From the NCBI RefSeq assembly GCF_003334385.1, contig NZ_QOWN01000008.1: DNA of 64,000 bases; one strand, given 5' to 3'. The notes beneath the pieces were generated by a model. That model saw only the letters and a program-made list of their open reading frames with translations, did no database searches and was not told the DNA's origin. Every line of letters starts with the position of its first letter. The stretch's first letter is position 1. The position numbers and the translations under genes are program-made. The stretch is from Escherichia coli (GTDB lineage: Bacteria > Pseudomonadota > Gammaproteobacteria > Enterobacterales > Enterobacteriaceae). Shown in pieces: positions 15,109 through 19,041 of the stretch.

Positions 15109-16574
<1,466 letters not shown>

Positions 16575-17954: not shown

Positions 17955-18845
17955 TTAGTGGCTTTGCGCGATAAGATCGTCTGGTGAAAGTCGGGTCACC
18001 ATCATAACTAACTCTCTGTCTAAACCTCTATCCAGCATCTCCTGAGCAATACGCAGGGCTTCTTCGTGTTTGCCCTGCATTGCGCCTTCTTCACGTAATC
18101 TGTCAGCAATGGTCATCAGTTTCTCCTTTTCTTGTGGTGCGCGTTCCGCTATCTCACCAATAAATGCACGAAAACGCTGGGCATCCCCTGTTTGTAATAC
18201 GTAATTAAACAGGGCTTTTAGCTGTCTGTCATTAGTGTTCCCTGTAACTAGCAGCGAAACAATTTGGTCGACTAATCCCAACAGATCGCGCTGACGAATA
18301 TGTTTCTGAATTAACTCCAACAGCGCCATTTTGCGGTGTTGCATAATCTCGTCATCCGGCACCACGGTAATATCCACCAACGGAAAAGCCGATGAATATA
18401 TTTTGCGGGCTATAGCAGGCTCGGCAAATTCATCAAGCCAGCAGAGTGAATAAGGATAAGGACTTCTGCAACCATGATAAAACAGCATCGGGAGCACCAA
18501 TGGAAGCTCTTTATAGCCCGCATCAAGATGGTTTTGCATTGCCGCAATGGAATAACGCATCATGCGAAAAGCCATTAATTCTTCCGGCTTACTTTGGTGC
18601 TCTATCACTACATAAATATAACCCACTCCCTCCTGCGTTTTCACAGACCACAAGAGGTCGGAATAATATTGCCGCAGGTCTTCATCAATAAAACTGTTTG
18701 GTTCCAGTTTAAGCGTCGTTAAATCACACAGTTTGCGCAGCGGCGCGGGAAGATGAATATCAATAAAATCCCGCGCGGTGTCTGGATGGCGTAAAAAAGA
18801 TTTAAATACCGCATCATGCGGCGTGGAAGTTGTCGATATTGTCAT
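17955..18845 (-). CDS. rpnB: Recombination-promoting nuclease RpnB (PD-(D/E)XK, transposase_31-like)
   Basis: 296-aa [30 protein letters not shown]...; recognised as YfcI/RpnB. Confidence 0.9.
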
Positions 18846-19041
18846 GGCGTTCCGTCACCCCTCAAATTTAAGATGACGCGACAATAACCACGATTAACAC
18901 CCAATGCAGCAGGCAGTTTTTATCTTTGGACAGCGAATTCAGAAGTATTTTTAGCGGACTGTAACTTTTACATTTCAGCGGAAGCTGACTCGCAAATTCC
19001 CCATGAAAATACTCCGGCAGCGTTAGCCACCGGAGAGGAAA

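Follow-up and report, generated by a model that had tools for sequence, protein, structure and literature searches.

In the stretch of Escherichia coli DNA analysed here (64,000 nucleotides; hereafter, the window), the gene rpnB very probably forms a gene-within-a-gene toxin-antitoxin module, in which the small protein RpnB_S is initiated at M244 through an AAGGAG Shine-Dalgarno (SD) sequence on an mRNA made from an internal promoter (Table 1). The nested antitoxin of rpnB is already known, and no new biology is claimed. The internal translation initiation site (iTIS), the small protein and its antitoxin activity have been published for the same gene, as RpnB_L/RpnB_S of K-12 MG1655 (Zhong 2023, PNAS, PMC10400941). 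Because the nested antitoxin was published for this gene between 2019 and 2023, our analysis adds no discovery. The coordinates of the nested coding sequence (CDS), its SD, the internal promoter and the transcription start sites (TSSs) have some annotation value, since RefSeq lists only the long rpnB CDS and no nested CDS.

The results established here are the position of the start and its SD, the promoter elements with their conservation, and the predicted fold. Internal initiation, the small protein, the toxicity of RpnB_L without RpnB_S and the cognate-specific suppression of SOS induction were established by others for an identical sequence. The biological interest lies in an antitoxin that is encoded within its own toxin gene and whose specificity is tuned by 4-amino-acid repeats.

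Table 1. Features of the rpnB locus, in window coordinates.
Feature	Position	Strand	Basis or remark
rpnB CDS (= yfcI; RpnB_L, 296 aa, PD-(D/E)XK nuclease toxin)	17955..18845	minus	including stop codon
Main TSS (gTSS) of rpnB_L	18921 (A)	minus	mapped by homology from EDL933
Internal promoter -35, ATGACA (codons N205-R207)	18227..18232	minus	17 nt upstream of TTTAAT
Internal promoter -10, TTTAAT (codons L212-N214)	18204..18209	minus	synonymous-site conservation; internal TSS 8 nt further downstream
Internal TSS (iTSS) of the short rpnB_S mRNA	18195 (A)	minus	mapped from EDL933 Cappable-seq by alignment; 79-nt 5' UTR
rpnB_S Shine-Dalgarno AAGGAG (codons K240-E241)	18123..18128	minus	6-nt spacer, -8.7 kcal/mol
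rpnB_S nested CDS (53 aa, ~6 kDa, antitoxin)	17955..18116	minus	start M244, ATG 18116..18114, same frame, stop included
Insertion point of 4-aa repeats (G254-Q257 = RpnB_S residues 11-14)	18075..18086	minus	12-nt indel and alignment gap block

The rpnB gene and its internal start

The rpnB CDS of the window is identical, base for base and over its whole length, to b2305 of K-12 MG1655, and inside the gene a window position plus 2,404,694 gives the NC_000913.3 position. The gene is flanked upstream by hisP and downstream by yfcH, which is encoded on the other strand. A match to rpnB was present in 4756 of 5426 complete E. coli genomes, and about 670 had none. Outside rpnB the window is not identical to MG1655. 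In the region around 15145..16015 (yfcE-yfcG), it departs from NC_000913.3 by point differences and by a net 11 bases in length. The DNA is therefore that of a strain close to MG1655 but distinct from it. The sole Rfam match at the gathering threshold in the 64-kb window was a tRNA gene (61616..61687, plus strand, 63.4 bits), which is unrelated to rpnB.

The initial annotation of this DNA had assigned RpnB to the Rpn (YhgA-like, PD-(D/E)XK) nuclease family, and this assignment was borne out. The Pfam domain Transposase_31 (PF04754) matched residues 8-209 with an E-value of 2.8e-90, and the Rpn family model TIGR01784 scored 186.9 bits, above its cutoff of 52.1. RpnB carries D11, D63, E82, Q84, R94 and D165, at positions that are functional in RpnA (Kingston 2017), and its PDDE motif, P163-D-D-E166, has the same residue numbers as that of RpnA. 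By domain, family model and key residues, the gene product is thus predicted to be one of the PD-(D/E)XK recombination-promoting nucleases. In vivo, RpnB induced the SOS response early and cost a recA-deficient strain 98.7% of its colony-forming units (Kingston 2017). DNA cleavage in vitro has been published for RpnA only, not for RpnB.

We scanned all the in-frame ATG, GTG and TTG codons of rpnB by the energy of the upstream duplex with the anti-SD sequence. Among the 35 longest non-overlapping open reading frames (ORFs) in the window, which together have 328 in-frame internal ATGs, the SD of M244 ranked first. With AAGGAG at a 6-nt spacing before M244, the nested ORF was evident from the sequence, away from the codons that the initial annotation had named. 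The strongest anti-SD match of the gene (-10.8 kcal/mol) was elsewhere: a perfect AGGAGG lies 2 nt before the in-frame GTG of codon 74 (18624..18634, minus strand). As 2 nt leave too little room for efficient initiation, AGGAGG may be an SD-like pause site within the nuclease core.

The numbering of a published mutant ties M244 to RpnB_S. A stop mutant named 'RpnBS D29' was reported to inactivate RpnB_S (Zhong 2023, PMC10400941), and among the in-frame starts of rpnB, residue 29 is Asp only when counted from M244. Homology led to the same codon. The iTIS of RpnA was proven, according to the same report, by the triple substitution K240R+E241D+M244L, which abolishes RpnA_S. Residues 1-52 of RpnB_S aligned with positions 244-291 of the NCBIfam RpnA model, and residues 1-48 of the RpnA_S chain in structure 7TH0 (49 aa) aligned to RpnB 244-295; phmmer matched RpnB_S to 7th0_A with an E-value of 1.3e-4. 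In a set of 101 sequences, made up of the window protein and 100 full-length homologs with at least 61% identity, M244 was invariant and K240-E241 was kept in 98. From the D29 numbering, the homology to RpnA M244 and these sequence features, we concluded that M244 is the start of RpnB_S. The gene has an in-frame, 3'-proximal start with its own ribosome-binding site.

Direct measurements have been published for this start in MG1655. Peaks at rpnB in translation-initiation-site (TIS) profiling by Ribo-RET/Onc112 were reported (Meydan 2019; Zhong 2023, PMC10400941), and SPA-tagged RpnB_S and RpnB_L were both detected (Zhong 2023, PMC10400941). The text of the Weaver 2019 preprint does not mention the rpn genes, and a literature search for yfcI together with ribosome profiling gave no match.

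Additional or alternative products from other in-frame ATGs were weighed against the 53-aa form. It is improbable that still shorter products, starting at M256 (18080..18078) or M270 (18038..18036), add to it or replace it. M256 follows a weak SD-like sequence, GAAGAAGG (-4.8 kcal/mol), but the codon is kept in only 9 of the 101 sequences and lies within a hypervariable block. M270 is invariant in all 101 and is preceded by AGGAG (-6.2 kcal/mol); this AGGAG, however, abuts the ATG with no spacer, and an SD directly touching the start codon is unfavourable for initiation. The invariance of M270 can be explained by its place in the conserved core of modelled helix 1. A product from either codon would have little or nothing of the dimerising helix, and the D29 numbering fits M244, not M256 or M270. 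Equally improbable is a second, longer C-terminal proteoform made from the full-length mRNA at M173 or M168, which would consist of the end of the nuclease domain and the RpnS module. Such a proteoform, if true, would be a further regulatory layer.

Conservation of the Shine-Dalgarno sequence and the internal promoter

AAGGAG-N6-ATG could in principle be nothing but codons for K-E-K-L-M, with no functional internal initiation and with a C-terminal domain that acts only in the full-length protein. Conservation of K240, E241 and M244 at the protein level could alone keep much of the motif. We therefore turn to nucleotide-level conservation. A scan of genome contigs gave eight loci, mostly from Escherichia, to which we added the DNA of eight further homologs at other chromosomal positions (beside feoC, yicS/eamA and others). 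The K-E codons were AAG GAG in the Escherichia rpnB orthologs and in seven of the eight diverged loci, that is, in all those with K-E. AAA and GAA are commoner codons in E. coli than AAG and GAG. The eighth locus (L015) has R-E, encoded by AGG GAG and followed by N6 and the ATG of M244. The Erwinia homolog (L008), with G-E-E, has GGA GAG GAA and so retains GGAGAGG. Every diverged locus thus keeps an SD, in the form of AAG GAG, AGG GAG or GGA GAG GAA.

Within Escherichia, codons 236-253 showed no synonymous difference among eight rpnB sequences, compared with a gene mean of 0.15 (p = 5e-4 in a column permutation that ignores phylogenetic non-independence). The 45-nt segment with the SD and ATG was 100% identical in 3920 of the 4751 complete E. 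coli genomes having the segment. The fixed synonymous choices, the SD variants of L015 and L008 and the absence of synonymous change in Escherichia all argue against a mere coding motif, as do a separate internal TSS with a conserved promoter (below), the detection of the small protein and the published trans-acting function of RpnB_S. We consider the lack of functional initiation highly improbable. Loss of the small protein on mutation of the SD and ATG is reported for RpnA, and the equivalent mutant of RpnB is reported in toxicity assays.

The start at M244 is served by a transcript of its own. In a Cappable-seq study of O157:H7 EDL933, rpnB was a test case for RT-qPCR (PMC10469882). An iTSS was found 650 bp downstream of the start codon, its signal was higher than that of the main TSS, and RT-qPCR detected significantly more RNA downstream of the iTSS (PMC10469882). 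TSSs by dRNA-seq inside all rpn genes are cited by Zhong 2023 (PMC10400941). The TSS positions in Table 1 were measured in EDL933, which has a single-base difference from the window in the promoter region (TAC to TAT at gene position 645, between -10 and +1); in the flank of the main TSS, the sole difference is at -116.

A generic promoter scan upstream of M244 on the minus strand found no internal promoter. It overlooked TTTAAT because its rule demands A at hexamer position 2, and the lack of this usual A is a caveat on the assigned -10 element. The promoter was recognised through synonymous-site conservation combined with the published TSS. Codons 204-215 had a synonymous difference of 0.225 against 0.506 gene-wide among ten diverged homologs (p = 5e-5, in a permutation that ignores phylogenetic non-independence); apart from the 5' end, synonymous divergence dipped nowhere else as strongly in these homologs. 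The bases of ATGACA and TTTAAT were kept at synonymous sites in nine of ten diverged Rpn homologs. In brief, rpnB has an internal promoter and TSS with a short transcript exceeding the full-length mRNA, as expected of an RpnS gene within a gene, with transcript levels measured in another strain.

No recognisable sigma-70 -10 hexamer was found upstream of the main TSS (window 18921..18960), where positions -12 to -7 read CTGTCC. The promoter of the long mRNA may be weak or served by another sigma factor, and either would fit an excess of RpnB_S mRNA over RpnB_L mRNA. In the 79-nt leader of the short mRNA, an out-of-frame ATG (18184..18182) opens an 11-codon ORF (18149..18184, minus strand), which has no proper SD and ends 30 nt before the rpnB_S ATG.

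The initial annotation had proposed a nested in-frame antitoxin of the RpnS type in rpnB, in agreement with what has been published experimentally for the identical MG1655 gene (Zhong 2023; Meydan 2019), but had sought its start at M168 or M173, for a product of 124-129 aa and 12-14 kDa. The peptide that it quoted and both in-frame ATGs are indeed present (M168, 18344..18342; M173, 18329..18327; minus strand), and M173 is kept in 74 of the 101 sequences. The two codons are not in the C-terminal third, where they had been placed, but 57-58% along the gene, inside Transposase_31 and right after PDDE. The accompanying statement that no strong SD is visible was right for M168 and M173, with anti-SD duplexes of only -3.3 and +0.4 kcal/mol in the 20 nt upstream, but wrong for the gene in view of M244. 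Conservation is poor compared with the invariant M244: M168 is kept in 64 of the 101 sequences and replaced by V, L, A or I in the other 37, M173 is replaced by V or I in 27, and a 56%-identical Erwinia homolog has Gly at the position of M168. Counted from M168 or M173, residue 29 is V or T instead of the published D29, and the crystallised RpnA_S, with 49 aa aligned to RpnB 244-295, does not fit such a start.

The transcript also speaks against M168 and M173. On the short rpnB mRNA, which begins at codon 217, M244 is the first start codon in frame; both upstream codons are therefore absent from this abundant mRNA. The true start lies 76 codons downstream of the codons named in the initial annotation, and its product of 53 aa makes the size predicted there more than twice too large. 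A start at M168 or M173 is already effectively refuted. Family knowledge alone put the start 76 codons too early, and a simple SD scan would have located M244. The tests that had been suggested, namely TIS profiling, a tagged western blot and mutation of the start combined with a toxicity assay, are already reported for rpnB (Meydan 2019; Zhong 2023, PMC10400941).

Fold of RpnB_S and variation among rpnB alleles

The 53-mer, modelled with AlphaFold2 (pLDDT 79), had helices at residues 3-29, 34-41 and 45-52. The top Foldseek match of this model in the PDB was 7TH0 (TM 0.69/0.78, rmsd 2.4 Å, probability 1.00, 43% identity), and the family PF27070 (HTH_Rpn_C) is recorded on RpnB homologs. The model suggests that RpnB_S, like its homolog RpnA_S, folds into a compact bundle of three helices, the first of them long.

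In a phmmer search of the PDB, RpnB_S matched designer pentatricopeptide-repeat (PPR) proteins best, with E-values down to 7.6e-26. Residues 12-42 of RpnB_S (17991..18083, minus strand), a helix-turn-helix, do resemble the 35-aa PPR consensus. We rejected homology because the score was summed over 9-11 repeats and the per-domain E-values were 9 to 30 or worse. The resemblance is probably a convergent helical-hairpin sequence.

Homologs of RpnB were 296, 300, 304, 308, 312, 316 or 320 aa long, that is, they differed in steps of 4 aa. In the alignment, a gap block opened 10-12 residues after M244 and was filled by tetrads of the xEGx/xQGx type. A 12-nt indel directly after E253 distinguishes the alleles of E. 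coli E69, Escherichia sp. MOD1 and E. whittamii from that of the window, which carries no extra repeat and is the shortest form. Alleles of 296 aa and 300 aa coexist in Escherichia. In RpnS proteins, helix 1 is reported to contain the repeats, which start 8-20 residues downstream of the initiating Met and set the specificity between the long and small proteins (Zhong 2023, PMC10400941). The repeat position in the RpnB alignment agrees with this signature.

Several E. coli genomes carried IS1 inside rpnB, at three positions (loci L020, L021 and L022). The insertion was at gene nt 652-660 (window 18186..18194), directly after the internal TSS, in ETEC H10407/SEC470, at about nt 460 in a Danish K-12 laboratory strain and at about nt 387 in EM20-18-50. 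A single IS1 hotspot was rejected, as the three positions are different. All three insertions are upstream of the iTIS, so that the toxin part is broken and the rpnB_S ORF is intact. With 82% of the gene located before the iTIS, this count of 3/3 has no statistical meaning.

In one E. coli protein of 361 aa (P0028), the C-terminal RpnS module was tandemly duplicated within a single ORF, with KERLMTIAERLRQEGHQIGWQEGMHEQ present twice. Its sequence looks like that of an rpn gene fused with a downstream stand-alone rpnSs copy. Fusion events of this kind are mentioned in Zhong 2023 (PMC10400941).

Proposed mechanism and comparison with known systems

The published experiments on rpnB bear on both products. 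RpnB_L with a mutated iTIS/RBS was reported to inhibit growth more than the wild-type gene did (Zhong 2023, PMC10400941). According to the same report, RpnB_S, but not RpnA_S, blocked the SOS induction caused by RpnB_LS in a dinD-lacZ assay, and a stop at D29 removed the block. Only for RpnA has it been shown that the long and small proteins form a complex, that helix 1 mediates dimerisation, that DNA cleavage is inhibited in vitro and that dissociation occurs at high pH.

With these results, the rpnB locus very probably works as follows. The full ORF, read from 18845 to 17955 on the minus strand, gives RpnB_L, an endonuclease that attacks DNA and, if produced without its partner, is toxic. 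The internal promoter, of the sigma-70 type (ATGACA, TTTAAT, +1 at about 18195), gives a second and more abundant mRNA. Ribosomes bind AAGGAG (18128..18123) on this short mRNA, and probably on the long one as well, and initiate at the ATG of M244 (18116..18114) in the same frame, so that the 53-aa product equals the C-terminal three-helix domain of RpnB_L. The long first helix would be a dimerisation surface, through which free RpnB_S would pair with the same domain of RpnB_L and block the nuclease in a dominant-negative way. The block is cognate-specific. The number of 4-aa repeats in helix 1 sets this specificity, and the window allele is the minimal form. The physical mode of inhibition is proposed here by analogy with RpnA.

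An anti-phage role of chromosomal RpnB could likewise be suggested by analogy. The PADLOC-DB 2.0.0 models (2023) had no match to RpnB_L or RpnB_S, the literature on Rpn systems reports no phage defence by chromosomal RpnB, and the neighbours of the gene are housekeeping genes (hisP, yfcH and folX) and do not form a defence island. We did not assign RpnB to the anti-phage defence systems on these grounds.

A close relative is RpnA_L/RpnA_S (yhgA; crystal structure 7TH0 of RpnA_S), which resembles rpnB in having its iTIS at M244, an SD in the K240-E241 codons and a three-helix small protein. The two long proteins share D11, D63, E82 and Q84 at identical positions. RpnA_S has 49 aa, unlike the 53 aa of RpnB_S, and each antitoxin is specific for its cognate: RpnA_S does not block RpnB_LS, nor does RpnB_S block RpnA_LS. 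The plasmid-borne RpnP2_LS of ECOR13 is of the same family and has the same gene-within-gene architecture as rpnB. Defence against T-even phages has been shown for this plasmid system only, whereas chromosomal RpnB has no reported phage phenotype.

The stand-alone RpnS proteins (ypaA/rpnE_Ss and rpnC_Ss; DUF4351/PF14261) represent the same small helical antitoxin module as RpnB_S. They are encoded by separate downstream genes, whereas the rpnB locus in the window has no second copy and is followed by yfcH on the opposite strand. Outside the Rpn family, ArcB-C and Cas10d/Cas11d are similar to rpnB in that a 3'-proximal in-frame iTIS yields a functional C-terminal fragment. In those systems the fragment complements the long protein, whereas RpnS antagonises it.
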